Assembly: GCA_004294385.1 (NCBI GenBank)
Contig: REAP01000032.1
Location: 4,098 to 68,097 of the forward strand
Reading direction: 5' to 3'
DNA length: 64,000 bases
DNA from: Oscillatoriales cyanobacterium
GTDB taxonomy: Bacteria > Cyanobacteriota > Cyanobacteriia > Cyanobacteriales > Microcoleaceae
Under the pieces are notes generated by a model. It saw only the letters and a list, made by a program, of their open reading frames with translations. It had not been told where the DNA came from and searched no databases. Position numbers and translations under genes: made by a program. Below are positions 29,701 through 54,231 of the stretch, piece by piece (position 1 is the stretch's first letter; each line of letters begins with the position of its first letter).

Positions 29701-32700
29701 AAATTGTTATTGATGTTGCCAGAAGAGTTTCCAGTAGTTCCAGTCGTTGAAATGGGCTGCGAAGTTGTAGCTGTGGAGGCAGGGCCTTCATATCCTGTGG
29801 TTGTGATACCGGCAAGGCGAGGTAAAGCAGACAAGTTTAAAGTGTATGGAGTCTCCGCACTATTAACTGAAGAAACTCGAATGCTGTAAGTGCCGTGTTC
29901 CACAATCCGGTTGATTGACTTTGAAGTAGTACCGGAATTTTGGGCTGTTGTGATGACATTTTGATTGCTGTCAAGCAATTCAAGATTAACATCTTCATTC
30001 ACGCCATCGACTGACAAATTGAAGTCATTATTAGCACCTAAAGTGAATTTGTAGTAATCAGAATTATTACTACTCACTGCATCAGTATAGTTTCTGAGGT
30101 TAGAAGTTGCATTGATTTTGAGGGATGTACTTGGAGTGTTTCCAGCTAAGTCTTTTGCTGGGGAATTGTTGCTGACAGCGATATCATTTGCATTTAACCC
30201 GGAGTATTTGCTATCTGTACTAACAGCAGGGGCAGTAACAATTGTGTAAGCTTTATTGCCGTCAACAATGTTGTCGTTAACACCTGTCACTGTTACTGTT
30301 TGGGTTGAATTCCAGTTGCCAGAATTGAAAGTCAGCGCTGGGGGAGAAACTATTCCTTCTGCTGTATTGGAACTGCTTAAATCTATTTTGACATCGGCTG
30401 TAGGTTGGGTGTTGAGTTTGATATTAAATGTGGCTTTTCCTCCAGCTTCTGTCGTGATTAATCCACTTGTAGGATTAACAGTAATACCAGGTGTTGGTGT
30501 TGGAGTGGGGGTTGGAGTGGGGGCTGGAGGTATGGGTATGGGTATGGGTGTTGGAGTTGGAGGTGTGGGGGTTACAGGTGTTGGAGTTGGAGGTGTGGGG
30601 GTTACAGGTGTTGGGGTTGGAGGTGTTGGAGTTGGAGGTGTGGGGGTTACAGGTGTGGGGGTTACAGGTGTTGGGGTTGGAGGTGTTGGTGTTGGAGGTG
30701 TTGGGGTTGGAGGTGTTGGGGTTGGAGGTGTTGGTGTTGGAGGTGTTGGGGTTGGAGGTGTTGGTGTTGGAGGTGTTGGTGTTGGAGGTGTTGGTGTTGG
30801 AGGTGTTGGGGTTGGAGGTGTTGGAGTTGGAGGTGTTGGAGTTGGGGTGGGAGGTGTTGGAGTTGGGGCAGTGTCGTTATCAGTAATGGCGACATTAACA
30901 GGTGAAATTGTGATGCTGTTATATTTAACATCGGTACTGGTGGCTGTATGGGCGATCGCACCTGCATGACTTCCTTCAACTAAACTATCATCAACCGCTT
31001 TCACCGCTACCGTTTGACCGACGTTCCAATTAGTCGCGGTAAAAGTAAGTGCAGTAATTGGTTGAATTTGAGTACCTGTAGCCAAGTTAATCGTCACAGG
31101 CGCTGTCGGTTGAGTATTCAACTGAATGCTGTAACTGCCATTTGCACCGCCTTCCGTTGCAGTCGCAGTAGTCGGGTTAATAGAAACGCCTGCGGTGTCG
31201 TTATCAACGATGGCGACATTAACAGGGGAAATTGTGATGCCGTTATATTTAACATCGTTACTGGTGGCTGTATGGGCGATCGCACCAGTATGATTTCCTT
31301 CAACTAAATTGTCGTCAACCGCTTTCACCGCAATAGTTTGAGCGACATTCCAATTAATAGCGGTAAAAGTAAGTGCAGTAATTGGTTGAATTTGATTGCC
31401 TGTAGCCAAGTTAATTGTAACAGGCGCTGTTGGTTGGGTATTTAACCGAACACTGTAACTGCCATTTGCACCGCCTTCCGTTGCATTCGTAGTATTCGGA
31501 TTAATAGAAACGCCTGCGGTGTCGTTATCAGTAATGGCGACGCTCACAGGCGAAATGGTGAGGTTGCTGTTATAATTAACATCGCTACTGGTAGCTGTAT
31601 GGGCGATCGCACCTGTATGATTTCCTTCAACTAAATTGTCATCAACAGCAGCAACTGTCACAGTTTGAGGGGTATTCCAATTAGTCGCGGTGAAAGTAAG
31701 TGCCGTAATTGGTTGAATTTGAGTACCTGTAGCTAAATTAATAGTAACAGGTGCTTTCGGTTGAGTATTTAACTGAACAGTGTAACTTCCTGTTGCACCG
31801 CCTTCCGTTGCAGTGGTGCTAGTAGGAGTAATGCTAACGCCTGCGGTGTCGTTATCGGTAATGGCGACATTAACAGGCAAAATCGTGATGCCGTTATAAT
31901 TAACATCGGTACTGGTGGAAGAATGCCCGATCGCACCTGTATGATTTCCTTCGACTAAATTGTCGTTAACAGCAGCAACCGTAACCGTTTGAGTGGCATT
32001 CCAATTATTTGGGGTAAAAGTAAGTGCAGTAATTGGTTGAATCTGAGTACCTGTAGCCAAATTAATCGTCACAGGTGCTGTAGGCTGAGTATTTAATTTA
32101 ACACTGTAACTTCCATTTGCACCGCCTTCCCTGGCACTTGTGTTAGTAGGAGTAATGCTGACGCCTGCGCTGTCGTTATCGGTAATCTTAGTATTGACGG
32201 TGTTGCCAGCAGTGCCATTAACCGTAAAACTGACACTCGCCCCGTTATACTTAGCATCGGTACTTATGGCTGTATGGGCGATCGGGCCATTGTGTGGCGA
32301 AGTTTCATCTACGATATCATCAACTGCACTGACTATCACCGTTTGCGGTACAAACCAGTTAGTTGGAGTGAAAGAAAGACCTGCAATTGATTGAATTTGA
32401 GTACCGGTGTTGAGTGCGATCGCCACATTTGCAGTAGGCTGATTAGTCAACACCACTGTATAAGTATCCGTCGTCCCACTTTCTGCCACATTAGTGCTGC
32501 CGCCCGACTCAACAATCTTTACCTGTGGCCCGCCAGGAATGATTTTAGTAATAAAAGCATCAGCAACACCTCCCCCATTTGCCGCTTGTAAAGGAGTTGC
32601 TGTTGGGAAATTAGTAGAAGCAGTACCTCCCGCCACATAAACTGCACCAGAAGTATCCACCGCAATACCACTACCGAAGTCGTTACCGCTGCCACCAAGA

Positions 32701-34565
32701 TAAGTAGAATCAACTAAGCCAGAACCCAACGCATTGATTTTCGTAATAAAAGCATCTTGCCCGCCACCGCTGACACTTTGAATCGCATTCTTAGTCGGAA
32801 AATTAGTCGAAGTAGTGTTTCCCGTCACATAAGCATTACCCGCACTGTCTACAGTAATGCGATCGCCATTCTCCTCTCCACTACCGCCCAAATAAGTTGA
32901 ATAAGCCAAAGAGTTATTAGCACTTATCTTGGTGACAAAAGCATCTTTAGCACCACCTCCATTAGCTGCTTGAATCGGACTAACTGTAGGAAAATCAGTT
33001 GAAGAGGTATATCCCACAACATAGGCATTTCCAGAACTATCTACAGCGATATCATTACCTTTATCTTCACCGCTGCCACCTAAATAAGTGGAATAAGTAA
33101 GTGCGCCATCAACGTTAAATCTACTGACAAAAGCTTCAACACCGCCTGGAAGTGTATCATTAGCTGAGTTCAGTGGGAAGTTAGTCGAATTGGTATTTCC
33201 AGTCACCCAGACATTACCAGAATTGTCTAGTGCAATGCCTTTAGCATCATCGATACCAGAACCGCCTAAATAGGTAGAGTAAACTAAAGCACTGCCAGTT
33301 GGATTAACTTTAGCAAGAAACCCATCCATTCCTTCTCCGTATGTAGGCTGGAAGGCATTGGCAGTGGTGGGGAAACCGCCGAACGTCGGCCCGACAACAT
33401 AAGCATTACCGTTATTGTCTACTTTAATGCCGTTGCCGAGGCTACTCCCGCTAGCGCCGAAAAAAGTACCACCACCGGAAATAGCGCTACCACCTAAAAA
33501 AGTAGAATAAATTAACGAATTCCCAGTAGCGTTGAGTTTAGTTACAGCAGCACTCGTAATATTTGTTGTAGGTTTCAAAGAACCGGCTGTAGTTGGATAA
33601 CCCGGATTGACTGGTCCGGTTAAATAAGCATTTCCTTGACTGTCTACGGCAATGTCGAAACCTTCATCATTGTTAGGGCCGCCAATATATGTAGAGTAAA
33701 CTAAGGCAGTTCCTTCGGGGTTAATTTTGGTAACTAATATGTCACTTATTCCACCTACTAGCGTGGTTTGGTACGCACCGGGAGTAGTAGGAAAATTGTT
33801 AGAATGCGTAGTTCCAATAATGTAAGCCGCACCTGTGCTATCTACGGCGATGCGGTTGGCATTCTCATTGTCGCTGCCGCCTAGGTAAGTGGAGTAAGCT
33901 AAAACCGGGTCAATAACTAGGGGTTTAGTGGGGTCAAAATATCCCAAACTGAAACCTACTTGACCGTTTCCTAATAAATTGTAAGCTGCGGGAACATTCA
34001 CCCGCTGTCCGTTGATGTCTTGATAAACTATCGGTGCGTTATCAATTAATTCGCCTAGCGGTGTCTCTAGTATCAGTGCTCCGTCGTCACGCAACCGGAT
34101 GTTGTTAACACCACTATAGTTCATCTTAATTTGACTCGGATCGGCAAAAGGTGCAACAAAAAACTCGCTTTTAAGTTGTCCTTCAGTGCCTTTGAAAACG
34201 CGGTCAATTCCTTGATAGACGTTTTGATAAACAACGCCGTTAAAAGTAGGAACGTCAGTGTGCCATTGACTGGAATCTTCGCCTAAAATAAAGTTAGCAA
34301 ATCCCGGCAATTTTTCCAGCCCGGAAATTTTGGGATTTGGGTTGCTGTTGGCTAAGCTGCTGCGGACAATTGAAGAAGTTGTGGCTTGGTTCCCCGGTTC
34401 ATTTGGTTTTTGGAAAGCGGTAAAGGTGATTTCGTTGGGAGTGAAATAGATACTGTGACCGGCACCTTTGACCTGGAATTTCACATTAGGGTCTGTTTGT
34501 CCAGCATTTGCAATAAAACTTAAGGGAATTTGACCGTAAGATGTTTGTTGATTTGGAGAATTCAT
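26703..34565 (-). CDS. Giant secreted multidomain protein: SBBP propellers, Calx-beta/cadherin-like repeats, PT linker, PPC-like domain, S8 protease, Ig/cadherin domain, RTX tail
   Basis: YSTYLGGSG.D.G..IAVD repeats; five TAGVSI.PT...EGG..GSY..QLNTQP repeats; (PTPPT)n; S8 motifs VAILDTGID, DGHGSNIA, HGSSQATAH; GGxGxD repeats. Confidence 0.85.
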   Translation of the reverse strand: MNSPNQQTSYGQIPLSFIANAGQTDPNVKFQVKGAGHSIYFTPNEITFTAFQKPNEPGNQATTSSIVRSSLANSNPNPKISGLEKLPGFANFILGEDSSQWHTDVPTFNGVVYQNVYQGIDRVFKGTEGQLKSEFFVAPFADPSQIKMNYSGVNNIRLRDDGALILETPLGELIDNAPIVYQDINGQRVNVPAAYNLLGNGQVGFSLGYFDPTKPLVIDPVLAYSTYLGGSDNENANRIAVDSTGAAYIIGTTHSNNFPTTPGAYQTTLVGGISDILVTKINPEGTALVYSTYIGGPNNDEGFDIAVDSQGNAYLTGPVNPGYPTTAGSLKPTTNITSAAVTKLNATGNSLIYSTFLGGSAISGGGTFFGASGSSLGNGIKVDNNGNAYVVGPTFGGFPTTANAFQPTYGEGMDGFLAKVNPTGSALVYSTYLGGSGIDDAKGIALDNSGNVWVTGNTNSTNFPLNSANDTLPGGVEAFVSRFNVDGALTYSTYLGGSGEDKGNDIAVDSSGNAYVVGYTSSTDFPTVSPIQAANGGGAKDAFVTKISANNSLAYSTYLGGSGEENGDRITVDSAGNAYVTGNTTSTNFPTKNAIQSVSGGGQDAFITKINALGSGLVDSTYLGGSGNDFGSGIAVDTSGAVYVAGGTASTNFPTATPLQAANGGGVADAFITKIIPGGPQVKIVESGGSTNVAESGTTDTYTVVLTNQPTANVAIALNTGTQIQSIAGLSFTPTNWFVPQTVIVSAVDDIVDETSPHNGPIAHTAISTDAKYNGASVSFTVNGTAGNTVNTKITDNDSAGVSITPTNTSAREGGANGSYSVKLNTQPTAPVTINLATGTQIQPITALTFTPNNWNATQTVTVAAVNDNLVEGNHTGAIGHSSTSTDVNYNGITILPVNVAITDNDTAGVSITPTSTTATEGGATGSYTVQLNTQPKAPVTINLATGTQIQPITALTFTATNWNTPQTVTVAAVDDNLVEGNHTGAIAHTATSSDVNYNSNLTISPVSVAITDNDTAGVSINPNTTNATEGGANGSYSVRLNTQPTAPVTINLATGNQIQPITALTFTAINWNVAQTIAVKAVDDNLVEGNHTGAIAHTATSNDVKYNGITISPVNVAIVDNDTAGVSINPTTATATEGGANGSYSIQLNTQPTAPVTINLATGTQIQPITALTFTATNWNVGQTVAVKAVDDSLVEGSHAGAIAHTATSTDVKYNSITISPVNVAITDNDTAPTPTPPTPTPTPPTPTPPTPTPPTPTPPTPTPPTPTPPTPTPPTPTPPTPTPPTPTPPTPTPPTPTPVTPTPVTPTPPTPTPPTPTPVTPTPPTPTPVTPTPPTPTPIPIPIPPAPTPTPTPTPTPGITVNPTSGLITTEAGGKATFNIKLNTQPTADVKIDLSSSNTAEGIVSPPALTFNSGNWNSTQTVTVTGVNDNIVDGNKAYTIVTAPAVSTDSKYSGLNANDIAVSNNSPAKDLAGNTPSTSLKINATSNLRNYTDAVSSNNSDYYKFTLGANNDFNLSVDGVNEDVNLELLDSNQNVITTAQNSGTTSKSINRIVEHGTYSIRVSSVNSAETPYTLNLSALPRLAGITTTGYEGPASTATTSQPISTTGTTGNSSGNINNNFVANNFLTTPRFTPITGINNLVRSVQTNISSSPIATNLLDASYSYGFDGGNDPYNIVPASVSSSQINLDKFRAAPGFSGIDGRGFSVAILDTGIDRNHPFFGPDSDSNGISDRIVYNYDFAEGDADASDTDGHGSNIASIIASQDQTYTGMAPGVKIIDLKIRKDNPANAGDQINKFPYVEQALQWVLQNADAYNIASVNMAFGSGQNFTSPTSLYGIGDELAELAAKNIIVVSSSGNRYYENQNNPGVNYPSADPNSLSVSAVYNSKIVPEPYFYTDYFGPATANTTAADQIAPFSQRNGTLTTIFAPGAPITGANENGGLSTYHGSSQATAHIGGIAVLAQQLAQQKLGRRLTPTEFGNFLKSTGVTIKDGDNENDNVNHTGLNFKRVDVLALGQGIIGNRPPQQQINLGGTYTALNVDVPNVYTDPDGDLLTYTLTRYDGTSLQSNPNSRWLGLSFNSATNNIKFTGTIPSNWQDFYAKLTATDPYGASASQVIHVVKRGDGKVIDGYIAGAKVFLDANKNGVLDASEPSTTTDSNGGYKLDIPFETFDTNKNGEIDPSEGNIVAFGGTDTATGLPLETPVTAPADASVVTLLTSLVADLIDKGVAPETAQSLVKSALAIPADVDLTSLDPIFAINNNLPGGVEVFTEMVKVQNFITQTSALIDGASSAATNEIVKAVVSSITTPMQSGTVLNLSNAAVLEPIIQQAATKIKQIDSTLDSQKITQITSQAAVVMATANQLIDSAVSNSTETSIPQSVARIQKVSLGATTQDFKAVGTGNKTISQVVTDNTGAALDSKIQAVTLPVAIATPVVSGDTDLGSNSPNQILGTDGDDILTGDSGNNVLMAMKGNDSLDGGAGNDSLFGGKGSDTLLGGSGDDALFGGRGADILNGGDGNDILLGGKGDDLLNGGLGSDSLTGGNGNDNFLLSTNSGIDTITDFEVGKDLLVLGSGLTFSQLSITQENSSTLIRLSATGEILASLNGVTASAIGVATFGSI

Positions 34566-42519: not shown

Positions 42520-42837
42520 ATGTCGATCGCCGTCATTAAAGAACATATCGAAATCACCCCAGGAATTTGTGGGGGAAAACCCCGTATCGCCGGACATCGC
42601 ATCCGAGTTCAGGATATAGTTGTTTGGCACGAACAAATGGGAATGTCACCAGACGAAATTCTGTATCACTATCCGAGTATTACTTTATCTGATATCTATG
42701 CAGCTTTAGCCTATTATCACGATCGTCGAGATGAAATTCGCTCTGCAATCGAAGCAGATGCAGAATTTGCGCGCCAATTGAAAGCTCAAACCCCATCGCT
42801 ATTGCAACAAAAATTAAAAAATCGTCAACATGGCTAA
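42520..42837 (+). CDS. DUF433-family antitoxin
   Basis: IEITPGICGGKPRIAGHRIRVQDI...YPSITLSDIYAALAYY. Confidence 0.9.
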   Translation: MSIAVIKEHIEITPGICGGKPRIAGHRIRVQDIVVWHEQMGMSPDEILYHYPSITLSDIYAALAYYHDRRDEIRSAIEADAEFARQLKAQTPSLLQQKLKNRQHG

Positions 42838-43162
42838 GATAAAATTTCATCTTGACGAAAATATAACTCTTGCCATAGGGAATGGATTGCGAAGACGTGG
42901 AATTGATGTCACCACAACTCCAGAACAAGGAATGATCGGGCAATCCGACGAACAACAATTAGCATTTTCCCTGTCTCAAGAGCGAGTAATTTTTACCCAA
43001 GATACGGATTTTTTAAGATTGCATCATGCAGGTTTGTCTCATGCGGGTATTGTTTACTGTCCGCAAACCAGTAAATCGATTGGGGAAATTTTGCAAGGAT
43101 TAGTATTAATTTGGGAGGTACTGAATGCTGAAGAAATGAACAATCATTTGGAGTATTTGTAA
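42830..43162 (+). CDS. DUF5615 PIN-like toxin
   Basis: FHLDENI...SDEQQL...RVIFTQDTDF...HAGIV; overlaps the upstream antitoxin by 8 nt. Confidence 0.9.
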   Translation: MAKIKFHLDENITLAIGNGLRRRGIDVTTTPEQGMIGQSDEQQLAFSLSQERVIFTQDTDFLRLHHAGLSHAGIVYCPQTSKSIGEILQGLVLIWEVLNAEEMNNHLEYL

Positions 43163-43313
43163 AAATAGGCGATCGGCACGTCGAGCCTGAGTATTAATCT
43201 TACCGCAGTTAAGAGGACTTATGAAAAGAAACTCGGTTTTTACGATAAATCAGAGATTTGGCAGCGAGGCATCGCAGAAACCGGGTTTCTAGCCTCCGGT
43301 GCATAAATCGCAA

Positions 43314-44681
43314 TTAATTTTTACAACAACTTATAACATATTCTCGAACAACAAGAGATAAATCAAACAAGACTTTCTCTCCTTCTATTCTTTTGAGTAA
43401 ATAACGTTGACGCAACGATCGCAACCCATTCATTAAGTCCATTGATGACAGAGATAAACTTTGGCTTAAATCTTCCCTTGACACAGGTAAGTCAAATTTA
43501 CTTAATTGTAAAAGAATCTCTTGCTCTGTGGGTGATAGCCGTTTGAATAATTCAGTCAACCGAGATTTAATATCTTTAGTGACTATTAAACTATCTTCTT
43601 TTAAAAAATCAGCAACTTTGCCACCAAAAATACTTTTAATTAAACTGGCAATATCTTTTAAATCAACGAAATTTCCTCCGTACATATCGCTAAACTCCGC
43701 CCAGGCTTCATCATCTTTTAAACCCCATTTTTTCAAGATTTCTGTATGGTCTAATCCTTGTAAATCTAAGCACTTAATAGGATATAAATCCTCATCCAGG
43801 CTAATCATTTCTTGACATTGTTCCTGACTTATTAAAATGAAGCTACTTTGATGTTCTATATTTGTCATCATTTTCAATAAATTTTGGAAATTTTTAGATT
43901 CCGTTTTGAACTCTCCTGCCAATTCTCCCTTAATAAATAATTCTTGGAAATCATCAAGGATGATTAAACATCTTTGTTGACGCAAAAGATTGAAAAATTG
44001 AGTTAACTTATTATCGGTTTGAATAAGCTCATCATTAACACCGATTAAAATTTCATTAATAATGGCATCTAAAGATTGAGATAGTTTGAGATTTTTCCAG
44101 ATTACTACCTCAAAATGTTGTAAATTTAGGTCAACAAACTGTTTGACTAGGGTGGTTTTGCCAATTCCACTTAATCCTAAAACTGAGACTAGATGAAGAT
44201 TTTGGTCGATTAACCAGTGGGAGAGGGTTTGAAGTTCGAGAGTGCGATCGTAAAAGCTGGTGATTTTAGGGGCTAGGGTTAAATCGTGATACAGAGATTT
44301 AGATTGATTCTTAGTTATATTCTCTTGATTGTCTTTGTTTGTATTATATAAAATTTGTGGATTAAAATTAAAGTTGTGATTACTACCATTTACATGACAA
44401 ATATTTCGATTTTGAGATGATTGAATATGTAATCTGTGGAAAGTAGAGCGAAAATTATGCTTATTAATATCTTCACCTAACTGTTTAGATAAAATTTGCC
44501 ATAGCTGACGCCCAACATTTCTAACACGACTTTCGCTACGCTTACAATCATCAGCAATTTCATCATAGGTCTTTCCCTGGTAAACCCCTGTAACTACAGC
44601 CTTTTGAACATCATCTAGGTGTTTTCCTGTCTTGGTGAATACCAACTGATCCGCACATTGTAAAACCTCTGTAACATTCAT
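43314..44681 (-). CDS. STAND-class (NB-ARC-like) ATPase with N-terminal HTH
   Basis: N-term KHLDDVQKAVV...KTYDEIA; FYDRTLEL; Walker A GLSGIGKT; Walker B LIILDD; C-terminal winged helix; no WD40/TPR tail. Confidence 0.8.
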   Translation of the reverse strand: MNVTEVLQCADQLVFTKTGKHLDDVQKAVVTGVYQGKTYDEIADDCKRSESRVRNVGRQLWQILSKQLGEDINKHNFRSTFHRLHIQSSQNRNICHVNGSNHNFNFNPQILYNTNKDNQENITKNQSKSLYHDLTLAPKITSFYDRTLELQTLSHWLIDQNLHLVSVLGLSGIGKTTLVKQFVDLNLQHFEVVIWKNLKLSQSLDAIINEILIGVNDELIQTDNKLTQFFNLLRQQRCLIILDDFQELFIKGELAGEFKTESKNFQNLLKMMTNIEHQSSFILISQEQCQEMISLDEDLYPIKCLDLQGLDHTEILKKWGLKDDEAWAEFSDMYGGNFVDLKDIASLIKSIFGGKVADFLKEDSLIVTKDIKSRLTELFKRLSPTEQEILLQLSKFDLPVSREDLSQSLSLSSMDLMNGLRSLRQRYLLKRIEGEKVLFDLSLVVREYVISCCKN

Positions 44682-44866
44682 AAAATGTATCCACAGTAAA
44701 TTTTTGACTATTATAGTATATTTTAAGACATTACATTAATTTTTGTTAAAATTGGTTTAATTTTGGAAAAAAACACAAGATAAAATAAGATATTTTAAGC
44801 TTGTGTTCGCTTGATAAACTATGTATAGTGAATTCTATGATTTTGTTTTAAACAAGGCACTTCAAT

Positions 44867-45229
44867 ATGTCAATGCCCCAAGAAATGACTGATGCTAATC
44901 TTAGATCTATTCCATCCGGTCTATCTGGCATTTATGCAATATACCATAATTTTGATGGAGAAATTGATACTGCTTATGTAGGAAGAGCCAAAGGGACACC
45001 CGGAAGTTGTATTAAGACCAGACTTCAAAAACATTTTAGTGGTCAAGATAAGCAGCGCATTGGAAGTGTGATATCCACCAGCCAAAAGGAAAAGGAGTTT
45101 TTCTTTTCTTATGAAGTGATTGAAACCTATGAAGAATTGAAGAGAATTGAAAAATCAGAAATTGTGAATATCCTACCAGCGGGGAACGTCCAACGCAATT
45201 TCAAGATTGAAGATTTAGGTATAGAGTGA
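44867..45229 (+). CDS. GIY-YIG nuclease family protein
   Basis: SGIYAIY...AYVGRA...KTRLQKH...EKSEI...LPAGN contains the GIY, YIG, Arg, His, Glu and Asn elements. Confidence 0.75.
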   Translation: MSMPQEMTDANLRSIPSGLSGIYAIYHNFDGEIDTAYVGRAKGTPGSCIKTRLQKHFSGQDKQRIGSVISTSQKEKEFFFSYEVIETYEELKRIEKSEIVNILPAGNVQRNFKIEDLGIE

Positions 45230-45304
45230 ATTATAAATATTTTTAAAATTCATCTCGATCAGACAGAGTTAAACACAAGTTAGTGACAAGAGAGGTAAAA
45301 GTTT

Positions 45305-45976
45305 ATGAGTGATGATCAAAGTGTTAAGTATGCAGTGGACTTGGTGATGTGTATTGATGGCACAGGTTCAATGGGTCATTTAATTGAAGAAGTGAAGTCA
45401 GCCGCTCTCAAGTTTTACGAGCAGCTAGAAGCTAAGATGAAAGAAAAAAGTAAAAAAATCGATCAACTGAGAGCTAGGGTAATTGTATTTCGGGATTATT
45501 GGGCAGATTCACCCGATAAGGTGATGCAATGTTCCGAGTTTTTTGATTTGCGATCGCAGTCTTCAGATTTTGCTAATTTCGTTTCTCCAATTAAAGCTGA
45601 CGGTGGTGGCGATGAACCGGAAAATGGCTTAGAAGCGGTTGGGTTAGCACTTAAGTCAAAGTGGGAAAAAGGAGACTTTAGTAAACAACGATATGTAATA
45701 ATTGTTTACACCGATGCTAGCGCTCATAGTTTAGGCAAAAGCCCTAAGCCCAGTCATTATCCTAATGATATACCAAAAAGCTTTGATGATTTGACTGATT
45801 ATTGGCACGATATACCAACATCAGCCAAGCGTTTATTACTGTTTGCACCTGATGCTGAACCCTGGACAATGATGAGTAGTTGGGAAAATACGATTCATTA
45901 TGTTTCGGAAGCAGGTAATGGATTAGAAGAACTAGAAATAGATCAAATTTTAGAAGCGATATCGGGGAGCATATAA
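45305..45976 (+). CDS. vWA domain protein
   Basis: MIDAS-like DLVMCIDGTGSMG; GGGDEPENGLEA; IIVYTDA. Confidence 0.85.
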   Translation: MSDDQSVKYAVDLVMCIDGTGSMGHLIEEVKSAALKFYEQLEAKMKEKSKKIDQLRARVIVFRDYWADSPDKVMQCSEFFDLRSQSSDFANFVSPIKADGGGDEPENGLEAVGLALKSKWEKGDFSKQRYVIIVYTDASAHSLGKSPKPSHYPNDIPKSFDDLTDYWHDIPTSAKRLLLFAPDAEPWTMMSSWENTIHYVSEAGNGLEELEIDQILEAISGSI

Positions 45977-46075
45977 GCAGGTTTGTTAATGAGCTATCTA
46001 AGTTAACTTAATTACTAAAATATGTATTAAGTTAACTTTTTAAATCACCTACAATTTCCAATAAAAAATTCAATT

Positions 46076-47866
46076 ATGGCTATGACTAAATTTAATTTAG
46101 TAGTAAATATAGAAGTTGCTGAAGACAAAGGCGAAGATGCCAACCTAGCTGAAGATTTTGGACAAACTTTCTTGATGGGCGTCTTTGACGGATTAGGAGG
46201 CCGATCGGCTGGTTACGGTGGTAAAACGGGGGGACGTATTGCTTCAGAAGAATCATCTCACATCAGCAAAACATTCTTCAAACAATGGCACGGTGAAATA
46301 AAGCCAGAAAATGTCATTCAATTGCAACAGCAAATTTGCCGATCGCTGAAAATTAAAGCAGATATCAATATGCCGAAAACTTCATCTCGGCTAAAAGGTT
46401 CTTTAGTCGAACATAAACTTTGTACAACGATCGCCCTGGCTAGCATTCCCAAGCAAAAAGGACAAGAAAGAATTTTTGAAGCTAACTTGGCTTGGATGGG
46501 AGATTCACGAATTTATTTTCTCAGTCCAACTAAAGGTTTACAACAACTTACTAAAGATGACTTAGTAACTTCCAAAGATGCCTTAGAAATGCTGAGACAA
46601 GATCCACCCATGTCTCAATATTTAACTGCCGATATAAATCCGACATGGCAAATTCATTTTCAGCATTATGAAATTGAAGGATCGGGCTGTTTTTTAGCTT
46701 GTACTGATGGCTGCTTTCAGTATTTTTCTGCTCCTTGGGAATTTGAAAAATTGTTGCTAGAGATGCTCTCTAAGTCAGAAGGGGATACAATGGATAAAAA
46801 TACTTGGCAACAATTAATTAAACAAAGATACACAGAGATTAAGCAAGATGATGTTTCTTTAATTCTCTATCCAGTAGGATTTAATGGAATAAAGCACTTA
46901 AAGAGTTCTTATCAAGAACGTTTGCAGTATCTCCAAGAAAACTTTATGGCTCCTACAGCTAATAGTCGCTATGAGGATGTACAAACTCTGTGGGAAAAGT
47001 ATAAAATTGATTATGAATATTATTTCCAATTTATTCAAGATATTCAGCCAATAGCTACTCCTAAACTATCCGTGTCAGAAGATTATCCCTCCAGTTCAAA
47101 CACTTCTGCCACTTCTAGTTTGAGTACACAAGAACTTAATCAAGTCTTTAAACAGAAAGCAGCAGCCAAGGCTGAAGAAATTCAAACTTTGTTGGAGCAG
47201 GCTTACTGTTATTATGAAAATAATCGCTTAAAAGAAGCTCAAAATTTGTGCATTCAAGTTTTGAATATTGAGGTTCATTACAGTGAAGCTAAATATCTTT
47301 TAGGATTGATTTACACTAAATCAGCTCTTACCGAAAGCAATTATAACAGAGGAGAGTTATTCAAAAAGGCAGGTTCCTACTTCGAGGAACTTGTTTTAAA
47401 CAAGTCGGCTGTGGAAAAACTTATAGCTGTCGAAAAAATTGTGGAATCATACCGAATTCTAGGTTTTATTTACTATTCTTTAAATAGCCCAAACAAGTCT
47501 GTTCATTATTATCAAATATTTTTTAAGAGTGAGGGTTCAGACAAATTAGACAACTGGCAGGAAGACTTGAACTTTTTTGTGATCTCTCTGAGGAATTCCA
47601 CAGGCAATAAATGCGAATCGGCTAATTCAGCCATACAATTTTGTCACCGTCTAGTTCATAATACTAAACTCTTACCTTATGGTAGAAATACTGTAATTTA
47701 CTACTTTATGGCACAACTACAAGAAATAGAAGGAGAATTAAATGCAGCCTTGAATAGTCTTCAAACAGTCTTGGGAAACTATTTGCAACTGGATTATAAA
47801 ATGCACCAAGAAGCGCAACAAATGTATCATAAAATTATGAATAAGTTAAACGGCAGGAGATATTAA
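46076..47866 (+). CDS. PP2C-family Ser/Thr phosphatase with C-terminal TPR-like repeats
   Basis: GVFDGLGG, LCTTIALA, WMGDSRIY, LACTDG, QDDVSLI; C-terminal helical repeats (AKYLLGLIY, YRILGFIYY, IYYFMAQL). Confidence 0.8.
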   Translation: MAMTKFNLVVNIEVAEDKGEDANLAEDFGQTFLMGVFDGLGGRSAGYGGKTGGRIASEESSHISKTFFKQWHGEIKPENVIQLQQQICRSLKIKADINMPKTSSRLKGSLVEHKLCTTIALASIPKQKGQERIFEANLAWMGDSRIYFLSPTKGLQQLTKDDLVTSKDALEMLRQDPPMSQYLTADINPTWQIHFQHYEIEGSGCFLACTDGCFQYFSAPWEFEKLLLEMLSKSEGDTMDKNTWQQLIKQRYTEIKQDDVSLILYPVGFNGIKHLKSSYQERLQYLQENFMAPTANSRYEDVQTLWEKYKIDYEYYFQFIQDIQPIATPKLSVSEDYPSSSNTSATSSLSTQELNQVFKQKAAAKAEEIQTLLEQAYCYYENNRLKEAQNLCIQVLNIEVHYSEAKYLLGLIYTKSALTESNYNRGELFKKAGSYFEELVLNKSAVEKLIAVEKIVESYRILGFIYYSLNSPNKSVHYYQIFFKSEGSDKLDNWQEDLNFFVISLRNSTGNKCESANSAIQFCHRLVHNTKLLPYGRNTVIYYFMAQLQEIEGELNAALNSLQTVLGNYLQLDYKMHQEAQQMYHKIMNKLNGRRY

Positions 47867-47872
47867 TAATCG

Positions 47873-48868
47873 ATGTCTTACAAAAAAGGTGATGTTATTG
47901 CGGAAAAGTATGTAGTAACCCGTGATTTTGATAGTGCTAACGGTGGTCAATGTCAATGGGGTTTTGCTGTGTACAATGGAAACGAATATTTTGTCAAAAA
48001 ATTTCTCAGTCCAGTTTATCCAGGCGAAGATGCACCAGGAAGTGAAAAAGGAAAACAAAAGCGGCGCGATCAGTGTGATGAATTTGCTAGAAAACAGCTA
48101 ACTATTCAAACAGCACTATCCGCTTGTGGTGCAGGCGGCTCAGTAGTAGTGATGGTGGACTTTTTTAAATATGGTGACGATTATGGTAAACATTTCTTCA
48201 AAGTCTGCCAAAAAGTCGATACCAGTTCCTTATCAAACGAAATACATACACTAAAGCCAGAAGAGCGTTTATTTGTCATGCTAACAGCAGCAGGCGCACT
48301 GAAAATTTTACACTCAAATGGGATTGTCCATCTTGACTTGAAACCAGATAATGTGCTGATTCAAAAATGGGAAGGAAGGCAAGTTGCTAAAATTATTGAT
48401 TTTGATAGTAGTATTCTTGAAGGAGAATCGATCGCGGCAGAATTTTTAGTCGGCGATCCGGTATATTATTCCCCAGAATTTGCCAAACATATTGCTACAG
48501 CAGGAAAGACACCCGCGCCCACTAAAAAATCTGATATTTTTTCCCTGGGTTTGATTTTCAGTCAATATTGGACAGGTACTCGTCCGGTTTTATCAGAAAA
48601 GTATACTTATGCTCACGAAGCTATTCTGGATCGAAAAAAACTGGAATTACCATCGATTAAAAATACAACTAAATTGCGCGGTACTCTCATTGAAAATCCA
48701 CTAGATACCGAAGTGCGTAAACTAATAGGAGAGATGTTAGCTTTAAACCATGAAGAAAGACCTGATATTAATCAAGTCCATCAAAAAATTAAATATTTTT
48801 ATAATAATGGCGCTCCACCTAAAGATGGTAGAAATAAGCTAATTATCAATCTGAAGCCCAAATTATGA
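47873..48868 (+). CDS. Ser/Thr protein kinase (atypical Gly loop, DFD motif)
   Basis: YFVKKF, HLDLKPDNVL, IIDFD, GDPVYYSPE, KSDIFSLG, ERPD. Confidence 0.85.
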   Translation: MSYKKGDVIAEKYVVTRDFDSANGGQCQWGFAVYNGNEYFVKKFLSPVYPGEDAPGSEKGKQKRRDQCDEFARKQLTIQTALSACGAGGSVVVMVDFFKYGDDYGKHFFKVCQKVDTSSLSNEIHTLKPEERLFVMLTAAGALKILHSNGIVHLDLKPDNVLIQKWEGRQVAKIIDFDSSILEGESIAAEFLVGDPVYYSPEFAKHIATAGKTPAPTKKSDIFSLGLIFSQYWTGTRPVLSEKYTYAHEAILDRKKLELPSIKNTTKLRGTLIENPLDTEVRKLIGEMLALNHEERPDINQVHQKIKYFYNNGAPPKDGRNKLIINLKPKL

Positions 48869-48881
48869 AATTTTTGATGTT

Positions 48882-49460
48882 ATGAAAAAAACTTACCAGT
48901 GTAAAGGTTGTGGGAATGAAGTTGTTTCACTGATGAAGCCTTCAGAGTGTGAGGTTTGTACAGGACGAGAATGGACGAGATTAGCTACGAGTAAACCGAT
49001 TAATTCAGGAGATGAAACTGTGGCTATTGATAAAGATATATTTTCTTCGTTTAAATTTCGATCGACCATTGAGGGGTATTGCCGAGATATTGGCTGGAAT
49101 CTTTCTAGTATTGACAATAGAATAGCGACAATTAAGTTTAATATGGACTCTGGCAATACGCAAACTTTATTCATTGTCAAGTACGATTCGACCTTGGAGT
49201 TTTCTTGCCCGAGTGGTTTAAAATTCGACGATGAAGATGATATACCCCATCGTTTATCTACGTTACTTCTCACGCAAAATGCTACTTATAAACTGGGGTT
49301 TTGGGGGATAGAAACTATCAGTGGCAAACAAACTTTTTCAATTATTCATAACGCAGAGATGAGTTTAATAGATGTCAGTTATTTTCGTAGGGTAGTCACT
49401 CAGTTAGTAGAAGAATGTGATAAATTTGAACAGACCATAGAAGAATTAATCAACAGCTAA
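48882..49460 (+). CDS. Zn-ribbon plus YbjN/type III chaperone-like domain protein
   Basis: CKGC-x12-CEVC; C-terminal alpha/beta pattern with LLLTQN...LGFWGI. Confidence 0.55.
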   Translation: MKKTYQCKGCGNEVVSLMKPSECEVCTGREWTRLATSKPINSGDETVAIDKDIFSSFKFRSTIEGYCRDIGWNLSSIDNRIATIKFNMDSGNTQTLFIVKYDSTLEFSCPSGLKFDDEDDIPHRLSTLLLTQNATYKLGFWGIETISGKQTFSIIHNAEMSLIDVSYFRRVVTQLVEECDKFEQTIEELINS

Positions 49461-49638
49461 TAGTTAGAAAACCTAGGAATTGCTTTTTTGGATGTGGGTG
49501 TTGAAGGTAGAACGATCGCCCATCCCCAACACCCATAACTTCAACCGCTCAGTTGTGGGTTGATTTTTCATAACTCTACTTTGCTGACTCTAAATCTGTA
49601 ACAATTAAAAATATAGTACCTGTTCAAAAGTTCTCTCA

Positions 49639-50049
49639 ATGACTTTTATCCCATCGGAAGCGTTTAAATCTATTAGTTATCCCAGCCGCACTGTCAAAAG
49701 AGCCGATCGCGCGATCCGGTGCAGCCCATTTCAATTACACTTCTTCCAGACCATCCGCGATAACAGCGTTTTCCTAACTGCGATCGCCTCAAATTCCGGT
49801 GTCGAACGCGGCTACACCCGATCGCCCGTAGCCGAACTAGCAGCCGAAAACTCCCTGCTGTGGCTGATCCAAGTCGGTGTACTGCGCCGGGAAGTAGATG
49901 GACAAGGGATTACCGACAGTTTTCGCCTCACGCCCCTGGGCCGCCAACTCGTGGAAAAATGGGAACAGGAAGGAGATAAAGTGCCGGATGCTTCAATGTG
50001 CGATCGCCTGGGAAATGCCTTGAGTCGCGGGTTGGGACTGTTTCTTTAA
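49639..50049 (+). CDS. Npun_F0494-family conserved cyanobacterial protein
   Basis: RAIRCSPF...LLWLIQVGVLRREVDGQGITDSFRLTPLGRQL. Confidence 0.8.
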   Translation: MTFIPSEAFKSISYPSRTVKRADRAIRCSPFQLHFFQTIRDNSVFLTAIASNSGVERGYTRSPVAELAAENSLLWLIQVGVLRREVDGQGITDSFRLTPLGRQLVEKWEQEGDKVPDASMCDRLGNALSRGLGLFL

Positions 50050-50634: not shown

Positions 50635-53600
50635 ATGGAAGCAAAATCTTACAAAGACAGCGTAAATCTGCCCCAAACCAAGTTTGAAATGCGCGCCAAC
50701 GCGGTCAAACGGGAACCGGAATTGCAACAATTTTGGGCTGACGAACACATCTACGATCGCCTTTCGGAAAATAATCCGGGCGACTTGTTCATCCTCCACG
50801 ACGGCCCACCCTACGCCAATGGCCAACTCCACATCGGCCACGCCCTGAACAAAATCCTCAAAGATTTTATCAACCGCTATCAAATACTGTGTGGCAAAAA
50901 AGTTCGCTATGTCCCCGGCTGGGATTGTCACGGATTGCCGATCGAACTTAAAGTCTTACAAAATCTAAAATCCGCAGAAAGACTCAATCTTACTCCGATC
51001 GAACTCCGTCGCAAAGCCGCCGCCTTCGCCCAAGAAACTGTCGAACAACAACGCGCTTCCTTCAAAACCTACGGCGTTTGGGGCGACTGGGAACATCCGT
51101 ATTTAACCCTAAAGCCGGAATATGAAGCAGCCCAAATCGGTGTATTCGGTCAAATGGTGCTCAAAGGCTACATCTACCGTGGCTTTAAACCTGTTCACTG
51201 GAGTCCGAGTTCCAAAACCGCCCTCGCCGAAGCTGAATTGGAATATCCCGAAGGCCACACTTCGCGCAGCATCTACGTTGGCTTCCATGTCAGAAAGTTG
51301 TCGAAAACTTTGCAATCGAAGCTCAAGCGCTATATGCCCAGCCTCTGGGCAGCGATTTGGACGACTACTCCTTGGACGATTCCGGCTAACTTGGCGATCG
51401 CCGTTAATCCCGAACTGGATTATGCGGTGGTGGAACCGCCGGCAAATTCTAATATCGCCCAACAATTCATGTTAGTGGCTGTCGATGCGGTCGATCGACT
51501 ATCGGCAACTTTTAACACTAAATTAAAAATCCTGGCTACCTTCAAAGGCAAAGAATTAGAAGGCTGCATCTACAAACATCCATTGTTCGATCGCGAAAGT
51601 CCGATAGTTGCCGGCGGCGATTACATTACCGCTGATTCCGGGACGGGATTGGTACACACCGCACCGGGCCACGGACAAGAAGATTTTATCGTCGGAAAAC
51701 GCTGCGGTTTGCCTGTTTTAACTCCCGTAGATGAAAATGGAAACTTCACCGCAGAAGCAGGAGTATTCGCAGGTTTAAATGTCCTCGGAAACGGCAATGG
51801 CGCAGTGATTGATGCCCTTGCAGAAGCAAATTGTTTGATTAAAGAGGAAAGTTACGCTCACTCTTATCCTTACGATTGGCGCACCAAAAAGCCGACTATT
51901 TTTCGGGCGACGGAACAGTGGTTTGCGTCGGTGGAAGGGTTCCGCGATGAAGCATTAAAAGCCATTTCTAGTGTTAATTGGATTCCCGCGCAAGGGGAAA
52001 ATCGGATTACTGCAATGGTAGGCGATCGCTCGGATTGGTGCATCTCCCGTCAACGGACTTGGGGTGTTCCCATTCCCGTATTCTACGACGAAGAAACTAA
52101 CGAACCGTTGCTAAATGCCGAAACCATCGCCCACGTACAAGCAATTATTGCTGACAAAGGTTCCGATGCTTGGTGGGAAATGTCGATCGCCGAATTACTG
52201 CCGGAATCTTATCGCAATAACGGCCGCACTTACCGCAAGGGAACCGACACGATGGATGTCTGGTTTGACTCTGGTTCTTCCTGGGCCGCAGTCGCTAAAG
52301 GGCGATCGGAATTGAACTATCCTGCTGATATGTATTTGGAAGGTTCAGACCAACATCGCGGCTGGTTTCAATCCAGCTTACTTACGAGTGTAGCAACTAA
52401 CGGTGTCGCTCCTTATAAAACAGTTTTGACTCACGGTTTTGTGCTGGATGAAAAAGGCCGCAAGATGAGCAAATCTGAAGGAAATGTCGTCGATCCAGCA
52501 TTGGTAATTAAGGAATATGGAGCCGATGTTTTGCGGTTGTGGGTGTCTTCGGTAGACTATTCGGCAGATGTGCCTTTAGGTAAAAACATTCTCAAACAGC
52601 AGTCGGATGTTTACCGCAAAATTCGCAATACAGCTAAGTTTTTGTTGGGGAATTTGCACGATTTCGATCCCGCTAAAGATGCAGTGGCTTACGAGAATTT
52701 GCCGGAACTCGATCGCTATATGTTGCACAGAATGGGCGAAGTTTTTGCGGAAGTTAAAGATGCTTTTGATAACTTCCAATTTTCCCGATTTTTCCAAACT
52801 GTTCAAAATTTCTGTACGGTGGACTTGTCGAATTTTTACTTGGATATTGCCAAGGATCGACTGTACATCAGCGCTACGGATGCTCACCGTCGCCGGAGTT
52901 GTCAGACGGTGATTGCGATCGCAGTGGAGAATTTGGCAAAGGCGATCGCACCTGTTTTGTGTCACATGGCTGAGGATATTTGGCAATACATTCCCTATCC
53001 AACATCGCACAAATCAGTGTTTGAATCTGGTTGGGTGGAATTGGATGCGAAATGGCACAATCCTGAATTGGCGACTCGTTGGCAATATTTGCGGCAAGTG
53101 CGCGGGGAAGTTAACAAGGTTTTGGAAAAAGCTCGGATGGAGAAGGCGATCGGTTCTTCGTTGGCGGCTAAGGTTTTATTGTATGTTCCTGATGTTGAGA
53201 AAAGAGCACAATTGCAAGCTTTGAATCCTAGCAGCGAGGGATTGATGGATTATGTGCGATCGCAAAATTCAATCATTGAATTAGCAGCAGCGGAAAAAGC
53301 CAAAGCAATACAAGATCAACAGGAAGAAAAAGCGGCAAATGTTGCTAAGGTCTTGACAGGAACGACAATTCATGTTGAGGAGGAAACGATCACAAAGGGC
53401 GATCGACCTTCTGAAGTCATCGAATATTCTGCCGTTGAAACACCGATTCCAGATGCACAACCAGCATTCGATTTCGATAAAGTCGCTCAGTTTGTGGCGA
53501 ATTTACCTACCTACGCGGGCAATTTCTTCACAGAATACCAAAAACCTTTGGTAACACTTGGGTTAATCACCTCAGTGTTGGTAACGGCGAGAATAACCGC

Positions 53601-54231
53601 CGGGATGTTGGATACGATGAATCAGATTCCTCTCTTGGGAGGAGTTGTGGAAATCGTCGGTATCCTATTCACAATGTGGTTTGCTGTCCGTTATCTATTG
53701 TTTGCGGACAACCGTCAAGAACTTGCAGAGAAAATCAGTCTGCTGACAGCAGATGTAGTTGGTAAAACTACGGCGATTGGAGTAGGTGAAAAAGATGCGA
53801 TCGCACTGGACACCCTAGTCGAATCAAAGATTATCGAAACACCTGAAGTTCCGAAAATCGTACTGGAAAAACCAGTCGAACCAGTAAATGTCACAATTCC
53901 AGCAATCCCGAAAACTGAAGTAATTACAGTTGTACCAAAAGCAAAACCTGCTGCGACAAAACCTGCAATTTCCGATTCTGCAACAGTCAGCAACTGTGTA
54001 GACGAACTGCGGTACTTGTTTATCACTTCGGAAGTGGAACTAATAGAGTCGAATGTAGTTCTGCAAGAATTACCGTATAGTTTCCAGTCTCCAGAGTTGG
54101 GAATTGGTGTTGTCAAAGCAAATGGCGAAAAGTGCGATCGATGCTGGAACTACTCTACTCACGTCGGAGAGTCGATCGAACATCCGCTAATTTGTGAACG
54201 CTGCGTTAGTGCAGTAGATGGACAATTTTAA
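50635..54231 (+). CDS. ileS: Isoleucyl-tRNA synthetase with inserted CAAD (CURT1-like) membrane domain
   Basis: [38 protein letters not shown]-terminal CDRCW...CERC Zn finger; ~250-aa insert with a hydrophobic hairpin near the C-terminus. Confidence 0.97.

Follow-up and report, generated by a model that had tools for sequence, protein, structure and literature searches.

A TerY-P-like vWA, phosphatase, kinase, and Zn-ribbon locus, probably a defense module, at a Microcoleus genomic hotspot

Gene content of the locus

Five co-oriented open reading frames (ORFs) in a contig of an Oscillatoriales cyanobacterium (REAP01000032.1; the window analyzed here is 64,000 nt long, and all positions refer to it) encode a probable GIY-YIG nuclease, a stand-alone vWA protein, a PP2C phosphatase, a Ser/Thr kinase, and a Zn-ribbon protein. 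The locus is probably a defense module of TerY-P-like design that derives from a distinct, apparently undescribed protein lineage. The ORFs are separated by gaps of 75, 99, 6, and 13 nt, exactly as given in a preliminary description made from the sequence alone, and they occupy an AT-rich insert between housekeeping genes, as that description had also proposed: GC content is 0.31–0.40 across ~43500–49500 vs. 0.42–0.52 in both flanks, and related genomes carry the same site empty. A divergent gene for a helix-turn-helix (HTH) STAND NTPase, absent from the preliminary description, is part of the same low-GC 6.35-kb insert. On balance, and with moderate confidence, we read the locus as hotspot cargo composed of three nested modules (the four-gene core, the HTH-STAND gene, and the GIY-YIG gene), in which the core would act as a TerY-P-like anti-phage phosphorylation switch.

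43211–49555, no strand: low-GC insert (hotspot cargo), delimited relative to empty sites by blastn against related genomes L187, L165, and L203, plus GC
44867–45229, + strand: probable GIY-YIG nuclease, 120 aa, a lineage-specific add-on (Pfam GIY-YIG, E 1.9e-4)
45305–45976, + strand: stand-alone vWA protein, 223 aa, of the integrin-beta-like type of metal ion-dependent adhesion site (MIDAS) (PF25106 VWA_4, E 2.5e-10)
46076–47866, + strand: PP2C phosphatase (residues ~1–265) with a helical C-terminal tail, 596 aa (PP2C_2, 8e-6; Stp1-type, 6.6e-9)
47873–48868, + strand: Ser/Thr protein kinase, 331 aa (Pkinase, 7e-27; Pfam match to residue 305)
48882–49460, + strand: Zn-ribbon protein with a domain resembling YbjN and type III secretion system (T3SS) chaperones, 192 aa (AlphaFold2, Foldseek)

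The vWA, PP2C, and kinase assignments made earlier hold, with Pfam matches and invariant or nearly invariant motifs in each protein. Across 16 vWA sequences, D18, T20, and S22 and the stretch G100-G-G-D-E-P-E106 are (near-)invariant, and the nearest Protein Data Bank (PDB) sequences are integrin beta I-like domains. The vWA gene is also better conserved than the other core genes, its identity averaging 53% among non-cyanobacterial loci. All metal-binding motifs of the phosphatase (E20-D21, D38-G-x-G-G, G142-D-S-R, D211-G, and D258-D259) are invariant over 64 homologs, as are K42, H153xDxKPxN160, D176FD, P201E, and R296 over 60 homologs of the kinase. Both enzymes should be active, because their catalytic motifs are complete and invariant. 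Strand 3 and helix C of the kinase are separated by an insert that is likewise conserved (P47, P50, G56, S57, C68, and F71). The window kinase ends soon after the kinase domain, with neither a C-terminal Zn ribbon nor an OB extension. The phosphatase tail, described initially as TPR, is indeed helical, but support for TPR repeats is weak (a single TPR_2 match at E 0.004 and PDB matches at E 0.4), and long tails are confined to a cyanobacterial subclade with phosphatases of 550–618 aa vs. 340–360 aa elsewhere.

The last gene had been regarded as an extra, chaperone-like partner; by its distribution it is instead the fourth conserved component of the family, with a C-terminal domain that varies. 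The protein has no Pfam family match. Its AlphaFold2 model (predicted local distance difference test score, pLDDT, 84.8) comprises a three-stranded ribbon (residues 1–35), a disordered linker (36–53), and an alpha/beta domain (52–191). Foldseek aligned the alpha/beta domain with the T3SS class-I chaperones VecA, SchA, SycT, and ExsC and with E. coli YbjN (6vu7) at probability 1.00, E 1.8e-4 to 4e-4, and a target-normalized template modeling (TM) score of 0.6–0.75. The C-terminal ~140 residues are thus predicted to adopt the YbjN/T3SS class-I chaperone fold, in agreement with the Zn-ribbon/YbjN-like assignment made at the outset. Unlike YbjN and the class-I chaperones, the window domain has a Zn ribbon fused to its N-terminal side and is encoded in a kinase operon. 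Stand-alone paralogs of ~146 aa, 53–60% identical to it, begin exactly at residue 47 (UniRef calls one “YbjN domain-containing”), which indicates that the ribbon was fused onto a pre-existing protein.

Among 64 loci with the vWA, PP2C, and kinase triad, the ORF after the kinase opens with a Cys4 ribbon in 39, and two further loci have the ribbon joined to the kinase itself; as a control, the same N-terminal pattern was found in 13 of 655 other ORFs of these loci. Non-cyanobacterial ribbons fit the RanBP2-type pattern W-x-C-x2-C-x3-N-x6-C-x2-C, with weak Pfam Zn_ribbon_RanBP matches (0.004–0.047). The window-type ribbon/YbjN protein is confined to cyanobacteria. The part that follows the ribbon differs by lineage, from the YbjN-like domain of the window to a 3-keto-disaccharide-hydrolase-like domain in Trichodesmium, a coiled coil and hydrophobic stretch followed by a PPC domain in Iningainema, and Ig-like arrays followed by a DUF4407 membrane protein in Bacteroidota; the Limnohabitans and Arthrobacter proteins have no recognizable C-terminal domain. 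Further Zn-ribbon proteins are encoded just downstream in some lineages: in Bacteroidales, an Hsp70 into which a ribbon is inserted, and in Nostoc, a protein with four Clp_N domains and a C-terminal ribbon.

In Laspinema palackyanum, a stand-alone YbjN-like paralog (L085, 6001–6441; 56% identical) is encoded divergently from an NB-ARC protein (632 aa), and its neighbors also include a kinase-TPR protein (577 aa) and DUF1822/TRADD-N and NACHT proteins. No secretion system is encoded near the window copy. The YbjN-like domain may recur in cyanobacterial conflict loci of the NTPase/kinase kind.

Distribution of the four-gene core

When 185,579 species genomes were searched with a vWA profile, 187 relatives were recovered, rising to 259 with a second query, and the best 80 of the 259 were analyzed further. 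The family is patchy (~0.14% of species). The vWA, PP2C, and kinase genes occur together in ~64 of the best 80 loci, mostly in that order, although a few actinobacterial loci are ordered PP2C-kinase-vWA. Loci with the triad span at least eight phyla, drawn from Cyanobacteria, Bacteroidota, Actinomycetota, Pseudomonadota, Spirochaetota, Chloroflexota, Bacillota, Verrucomicrobiota, and Nitrospirota. Between pairs of loci, the identities of the three core genes correlate with one another (Spearman 0.62–0.78). The Limnohabitans vWA protein is 62–64% identical to Verrucomicrobiota, Bacteroidota, and Chloroflexota copies vs. 51–52% to those of other Proteobacteria, and plasmids of Calothrix and Herpetosiphon carry copies. 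Taken together, these comparisons indicate that the core co-evolves and moves between phyla as a unit. Six loci (L005, L006, L010, L066, L156, and L164) encode two tandem vWA paralogs before the PP2C gene; the window has one, apparently left by deletion or recombination between two paralogs.

The core family was absent from IMG/VR phage contigs, where only two distant vWA proteins (26–28% identity) were found. One human fecal virome scaffold deposited as “UNVERIFIED: Bacteriophage sp.” (L237, MT836186.1) carries the genes in the order PP2C-kinase-vWA, with a vWA protein 47% identical to that of the window. Because IMG/VR otherwise lacks the family, this scaffold may be a mis-assigned bacterial contig, and neither it nor the two distant proteins were taken as evidence for a phage origin of the triad.

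Genomic hotspot

The insert is bounded on both sides by genes that are retained in related genomes:

42520–43162, + strand: overlapping DUF433 and DUF5615/PIN-like genes at the left hotspot edge (Pfam: DUF433, 3e-24; DUF5615, 4e-16; PIN_10, 8e-5)
49639–50049, + strand: Npun_F0494-family gene, the right hotspot flank, followed by the isoleucyl-tRNA synthetase (IleRS) gene (NCBIfam NF045586, 6e-51)

Homology between the window and the empty sites of two related genomes (L187 and L165) stops at ~43210 and restarts at ~49556–49563 (blastn). In those genomes the PIN-like and Npun_F0494 genes lie 28–35 nt apart, where the window has 6345 extra bases, and these breaks in homology set the size of the insert at ~6345 bp (~43211–49555). 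The DUF433 and DUF5615/PIN-like genes, likely a toxin-antitoxin pair, are kept in both empty and filled sites. The island borders were examined for target-site duplications, terminal inverted repeats, an integrase, tRNAs, and Rfam elements, none of which was found, and exchange of the cargo is assumed to proceed through flanking homologous recombination.

A survey anchored on the Npun_F0494 gene (NF045586) gathered 78 related loci, nearly all from Microcoleus or Tychonema species genomes, and the contents of the site were tallied across 74 related genomes. The site is empty in eight, so that the DUF433/PIN-like pair abuts the Npun_F0494 gene, while 12 of the 74 carry an MmeI-family type IIL restriction-modification enzyme and 10 carry HicAB with a TPR-trypsin protease. 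Window-type cassettes occupy it in five genomes. The same STAND gene is found there with a GTPase and with 90-aa Gly-rich and 145-aa multi-Cys proteins (4/74), with a small Gly-rich peptide (2/74), or with other content (2/74), and a further 26 genomes hold other content, often a P-loop ATPase with a 236-aa partner. Since the site in relatives is either empty or filled by restriction-modification, HicAB and protease, or other STAND cargo, it is a strain-variable, recombination-driven defense hotspot in Microcoleus, and the initial view of the locus as accessory DNA in a defense context stands. Of the contextual arguments for a conflict function, this location is the strongest, and it is from such context that we infer a defense role.

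The whole block is 81–92% identical in several Microcoleus genomes, the closest genome copies being those of Microcoleus sp. LEGE 07076 and M. anatoxicus, and 99–100% of sampled words of the window DNA are present in two microbial-mat metagenome runs. Metatranscriptome contigs span the GIY-YIG and vWA genes at ~94–95% identity, which is weak evidence of expression; a scan for promoters and terminators found no more sites than in shuffled sequence.

Location within a hotspot bears directly on the possibility that the locus is an ordinary Ser/Thr module for stress, envelope, or developmental signaling, placed at a variable site by chance and without a role against phages. Operons of vWA, kinase, and PP2C genes, in some cases with FHA, are tied to stress elsewhere, as in the Deinococcus DNA-damage operon (preprint 10.64898/2026.01.23.701218), and yegL-pphC-yegI of E. 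coli sits at a fixed K-12 locus. Flanking genes in other phyla are mostly housekeeping, and no clear toxin is encoded. A signaling module of this sort would, however, have to accommodate the patchy distribution, the cross-phylum similarity, the plasmid copies, and the foreign GC content, and also the fact that sister species differ in carrying it, at a site used in other genomes by restriction-modification, toxin-antitoxin, and NTPase cassettes. The hypervariable C-terminal domain of the fourth component is, moreover, typical of conflict systems. We consider ordinary signaling unlikely on these grounds.

The HTH-STAND and GIY-YIG modules

Upstream of the core, the insert holds the divergent NTPase gene and a palindrome between it and the GIY-YIG gene:

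43314–44681, − strand: HTH-STAND NTPase, 455 aa (Pfam: NB-ARC, 3.8e-10; NACHT, 2.5e-6; Sigma70_r4_2, 3.9e-4)
44773–44806, + strand: 34-nt imperfect palindrome (ACACAAG...CTTGTGT), a candidate operator, in the divergent intergenic region between the STAND and GIY-YIG genes

The STAND protein consists of an N-terminal sigma70-r4-like HTH, an NB-ARC/NACHT-type P-loop, and a short C-terminal winged HTH-like region; its best PDB match is the plant CNL Sr35 (E 0.005), and in PADLOC it drew weak PDC-S27 matches alone (3.5e-5). Pfam identified neither a C-terminal repeat sensor nor an effector domain in it, and the tripartite architecture of Avs-like proteins is thus not seen. The gene accompanies the triad in the ten closest loci only (L001–L010), which belong to one cyanobacterial subclade. 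The same STAND gene is found with a GTPase or other divergent cargo in seven loci (L157, L167, L193, L213, L216, L221, and L227), and one alternative cargo at the hotspot in sister genomes is a 464-aa protein of unknown nature. Window and GTPase-linked STAND copies are 95–100% identical over the C-terminal ~290 residues vs. 33–56% over the N-terminal ~160, a split that places a recombination breakpoint inside this mosaic gene near codon 160. The idea that the N-terminal domain covaries with the type of cargo was dropped: in the triad-linked copy of Argonema it is no closer to the window than in GTPase-linked copies, so the pattern is one of mosaic recombination, not of clean covariation.

The family of this N-terminal domain comprises 1398 cluster representatives, and most full-length members are 445–490 aa long. 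One protein (P0244, 541 aa) contains six tandem copies of the HTH-like domain, an unusual arrangement for a domain that simply binds DNA, and possibly a hint that it serves as a protein-protein adaptor.

The palindrome (ACACAAGATAAAATAAGATATTTTAAGCTTGTGT) lies ~60 nt 5′ of the GIY-YIG start. The divergent intergenic region has 90% mean identity over seven loci, above that of much of the coding sequence. The window contains a single occurrence of the palindrome pattern, vs. 0.01 expected; the pattern is restricted to GIY-type Microcoleus cassettes and may serve as an operator.

The 120-aa product of the first ORF is probably a GIY-YIG nuclease, although the evidence for the original assignment is divided. 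Its motifs are invariant (G21-I-Y23, Y37-V-G39, R52xxxH56, E95/E98, and N107), the predicted order of secondary structure agrees with the beta-beta-alpha-beta-alpha core, and seven of nine family members match the Pfam model at E ≤ 0.01. The window protein itself scores 22.1 bits, just under the 22.6 cut-off, and a nuclease fold was recovered neither by AlphaFold2 (pLDDT 72) and Foldseek (best E 0.39) nor by a PDB profile search. Relatives form eight clusters in 5.8e9 proteins.

The preliminary description had joined all five genes into one unit with this nuclease as a possible effector, and comparison with other loci supports neither part of that claim. The gene is present only in Microcoleus-type cassettes (L001–L005 and L010, and in the hotspot scan L156, L164, L200, and L215) and is missing from >90% of the loci with a triad. 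Those without it include L007–L009, the nearest cassettes outside Microcoleus, which keep the STAND gene, the triad, and the ribbon protein. Homologs elsewhere occur without the triad, beside a STAND N-terminal fragment and small hydrophobic (possibly membrane) proteins or beside a TPR protein, which makes the nuclease an unlikely dedicated effector of the triad. The window shares a vWA leader of ~60 nt with the GIY-less cassettes of Argonema, Phormidium, and Cronbergia, where the STAND gene directly faces the vWA gene; conservation of this leader indicates that the GIY-YIG gene was inserted later together with its own upstream region. The gene is accordingly a recent, Microcoleus-only insertion between the STAND gene and the leader, traveling with the former and not with the triad. 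An integrated system of five or six genes, with a GIY-YIG effector restrained by the PP2C phosphatase and kinase until the vWA or TPR part senses a phage, would be in keeping with the tight, co-oriented genes, the block-wide identity among Microcoleus genomes, the intact nuclease motifs, and the pairing of nuclease and NTPase that is common in defense. Yet it does not fit with homologs that lack the triad, with triads elsewhere that have no adjacent nuclease gene, or with the sign of a later insertion, and we regard it as distinctly improbable.

Comparison with TerY-P and other systems

In TerY-P as defined in PMC11090510, a TerY-like vWA protein and a PP2C phosphatase accompany a kinase to which a Zn ribbon is fused. 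According to that paper, TerY-P triads defend E. coli (citing Gao 2020), and in the system validated by Gao 2020 an OB fold replaces the ribbon on the kinase. A P. aeruginosa TerY-P variant protects against Autographiviridae with no culture collapse (PMC10889362).

The TerY-phosphorylation triad was reportedly described by Anantharaman, Iyer, and Aravind in 2012, and anti-phage activity of a TerY-P variant is said to have been shown by Costa et al. in 2024. To our knowledge, TerY-P is a validated defense system with no known mechanism.

Resemblance of the locus to TerY-P, recognized from the start, lies in its architecture. A stand-alone vWA protein, a PP2C phosphatase, and a eukaryote-type Ser/Thr kinase are encoded by adjacent, co-oriented genes, ordered as in the ter-operon triad; a Zn ribbon is found at the kinase end; and the family is mobile and patchy, with tandem vWA paralogs in some loci that recall TerY1–3. 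The vWA protein of the window family belongs, however, to PF25106 (D-x-T-x-S/GGGDEPE) and not to the TerY/YegL (COG4245) type, a distinction drawn initially from its motifs and now borne out by profile comparison. The ribbon also resides on a separate fourth protein, whereas TerY-P has a kinase-fused TerY-C or OB fold. Because TerY-P kinases are described with a fused Zn ribbon, the separate ribbon protein nevertheless brings the family nearer to the TerY-P architecture.

Two TerY-type references were compared, the ter-linked triad of an Enterobacter plasmid (in the order TerY1, TerX, TerY2, TerY3 with TerY_C, PP2C, and kinase) and yegL-pphC-yegI of E. coli K-12. In hhalign, the vWA profile matched neither, with probabilities of 14% for TerY1, 0.4% for TerY3, and 8% for YegL. 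BLASTP returned no significant match between the window kinase and YegI or between the window PP2C and PphC, tblastn with the window vWA protein found no IncHI2 TerY, and 10 family kinases contained no TerY_C domain. Neither Enterobacterales nor Pseudomonas is represented among the best 80 of the 259 vWA relatives. The core proteins are thus related to the two compared triads at the superfamily level only, and the locus is TerY-P-like in architecture while departing from TerY-P in its vWA type and in the absence of a kinase fusion.

PADLOC gave no match for the vWA, PP2C, or ribbon proteins of the window and of three other family members, a result that the preliminary description would have counted toward novelty. 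It also missed the ter-operon TerY-P triad of the Enterobacter plasmid, which served as a positive control, so the negative is uninformative on novelty and was rejected as proof of it. That silence would be expected if the locus were a plain member of the described TerY-P (Anantharaman 2012; Gao 2020) passed over by PADLOC models, an explanation that also has the same three activities, gene order, kinase-end ribbon, and tandem vWA proteins to recommend it, but that is very unlikely given the hhalign, BLASTP, tblastn, TerY_C, and taxonomic results above. A full-text literature search found no paper on a vWA-PP2C-kinase-ribbon family.

The E. coli K-12 cluster likewise combines vWA, PP2C, and kinase genes, with the Hsp70-family gene yegD as a neighbor; it differs in the length of its kinase (648 aa for YegI vs. 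331 aa in the window) and in its fixed chromosomal locus. Hsp70 genes are found beside both kinds of triad, although the two triads lack significant similarity in sequence: yegD in E. coli (L236, 2147674–2153128), and in three Bacteroidales loci (L053, L056, and L062), at the second gene past the kinase, an Hsp70 that contains a Zn-ribbon insert.

Kaur, Burroughs, Iyer, and Aravind (2020) described an actinobacterial trio of a kinase (with Zn ribbon), PP2C, and stand-alone vWA protein, together with a beta-rich domain, beside GAP1-N2 GTPase systems. The window island resembles the NTPase-centered conflict systems of that study in having a STAND or GTPase hub with swappable effector or sensor cargo; those systems are enriched in filamentous cyanobacteria. 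The island differs in lacking MoxR, VMAP, GAP1, and DO-GTPase components, and a Pfam scan of the six island proteins found neither the MoxR AAA+ ATPase nor the VMAP protein that a vWA-MoxR/VMAP ternary system would have beside its vWA gene. The window hub is a short HTH-STAND protein without sensor repeats, and neither this hub nor the core family is described in Kaur 2020.

Proposed mechanism and significance

In the TerY-P-like switch that we favor, PP2C would erase basal kinase activity in the resting cell. On infection, the MIDAS site of the vWA protein and/or the variable domain of the ribbon protein would capture an infection-derived ligand, either an unfolded phage protein or a peptide that is acidic or phosphorylated. 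Ligand capture would shift the balance toward the kinase, so that phage or host targets become phosphorylated and phage growth is blocked, a switch that is the same as that thought to operate in three-gene TerY-P. The initial model, in which the phosphatase would restrain a toxic kinase, is compatible with the intact catalytic residues of both enzymes. The Zn ribbon may dock the variable module onto the kinase/vWA complex and thereby replace the kinase-fused ribbon or OB fold of TerY-P. The HTH-STAND protein would be a separate hub that senses or regulates, for example through its N-terminal HTH acting on the 34-nt palindrome, and the GIY-YIG protein would be a STAND-linked add-on outside the core switch.

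Several observations weigh against a defense switch of this kind. Triad flanks in other phyla are heterogeneous: only a few of 132 flanking proteins match defense models (dCTPase, HerA, GajB, PDC-S03/S05/S70, TIR, and CHAT), and defense-island enrichment outside Microcoleus, as judged without a proper background, is modest. PADLOC, PHROGs, and NCBIfam yielded no system-level match; from the latter two came only generic matches of the kinase and PP2C proteins. In sequence, the ribbon resembles neither TerY-C nor the ribbon of YegI, and ribbon docking and sensing by the vWA and YbjN-like domains are steps that we infer. No obvious effector is encoded besides the kinase.

Combining the modules, we propose more tentatively a four-part, phylum-spanning immune module in which the C-terminal domain of the ribbon “plug” protein is exchanged among lineages as sensor or effector, and, at the Microcoleus/Tychonema hotspot, a constant HTH-STAND hub that would form a “socket” for defense cassettes. 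As part of the same tentative proposal, cargo operons (the core, the GTPase/Gly-zipper set, small membrane peptides, and GIY-YIG sets) would be exchanged through recombination within the STAND gene.

A second lineage with the logic of TerY-P would offer natural experiments on the TerY-P mechanism. Its separate ribbon protein with interchangeable domains could help to tell sensing from docking parts and to establish whether the kinase is the effector. The locus also illustrates how one hotspot exchanges defense cargo in Microcoleus, a toxin producer that forms blooms and mats and whose phage-host biology is poorly known. More cyanobacterial systems could usefully be sought through a STAND gene of this kind, with breakpoints inside it and alternative cargo.

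Other features of the window

Two further coding regions of the window lie outside the insert. A minus-strand ORF at 26703–34565 is very large (2620 aa). The isoleucyl-tRNA synthetase gene at 50635–54231 encodes a protein of 1198 aa with an insert that contains two hydrophobic helices before the C-terminal Cys motif; we take this insert to resemble the CAAD membrane-anchor insertion of cyanobacterial aminoacyl-tRNA synthetases.

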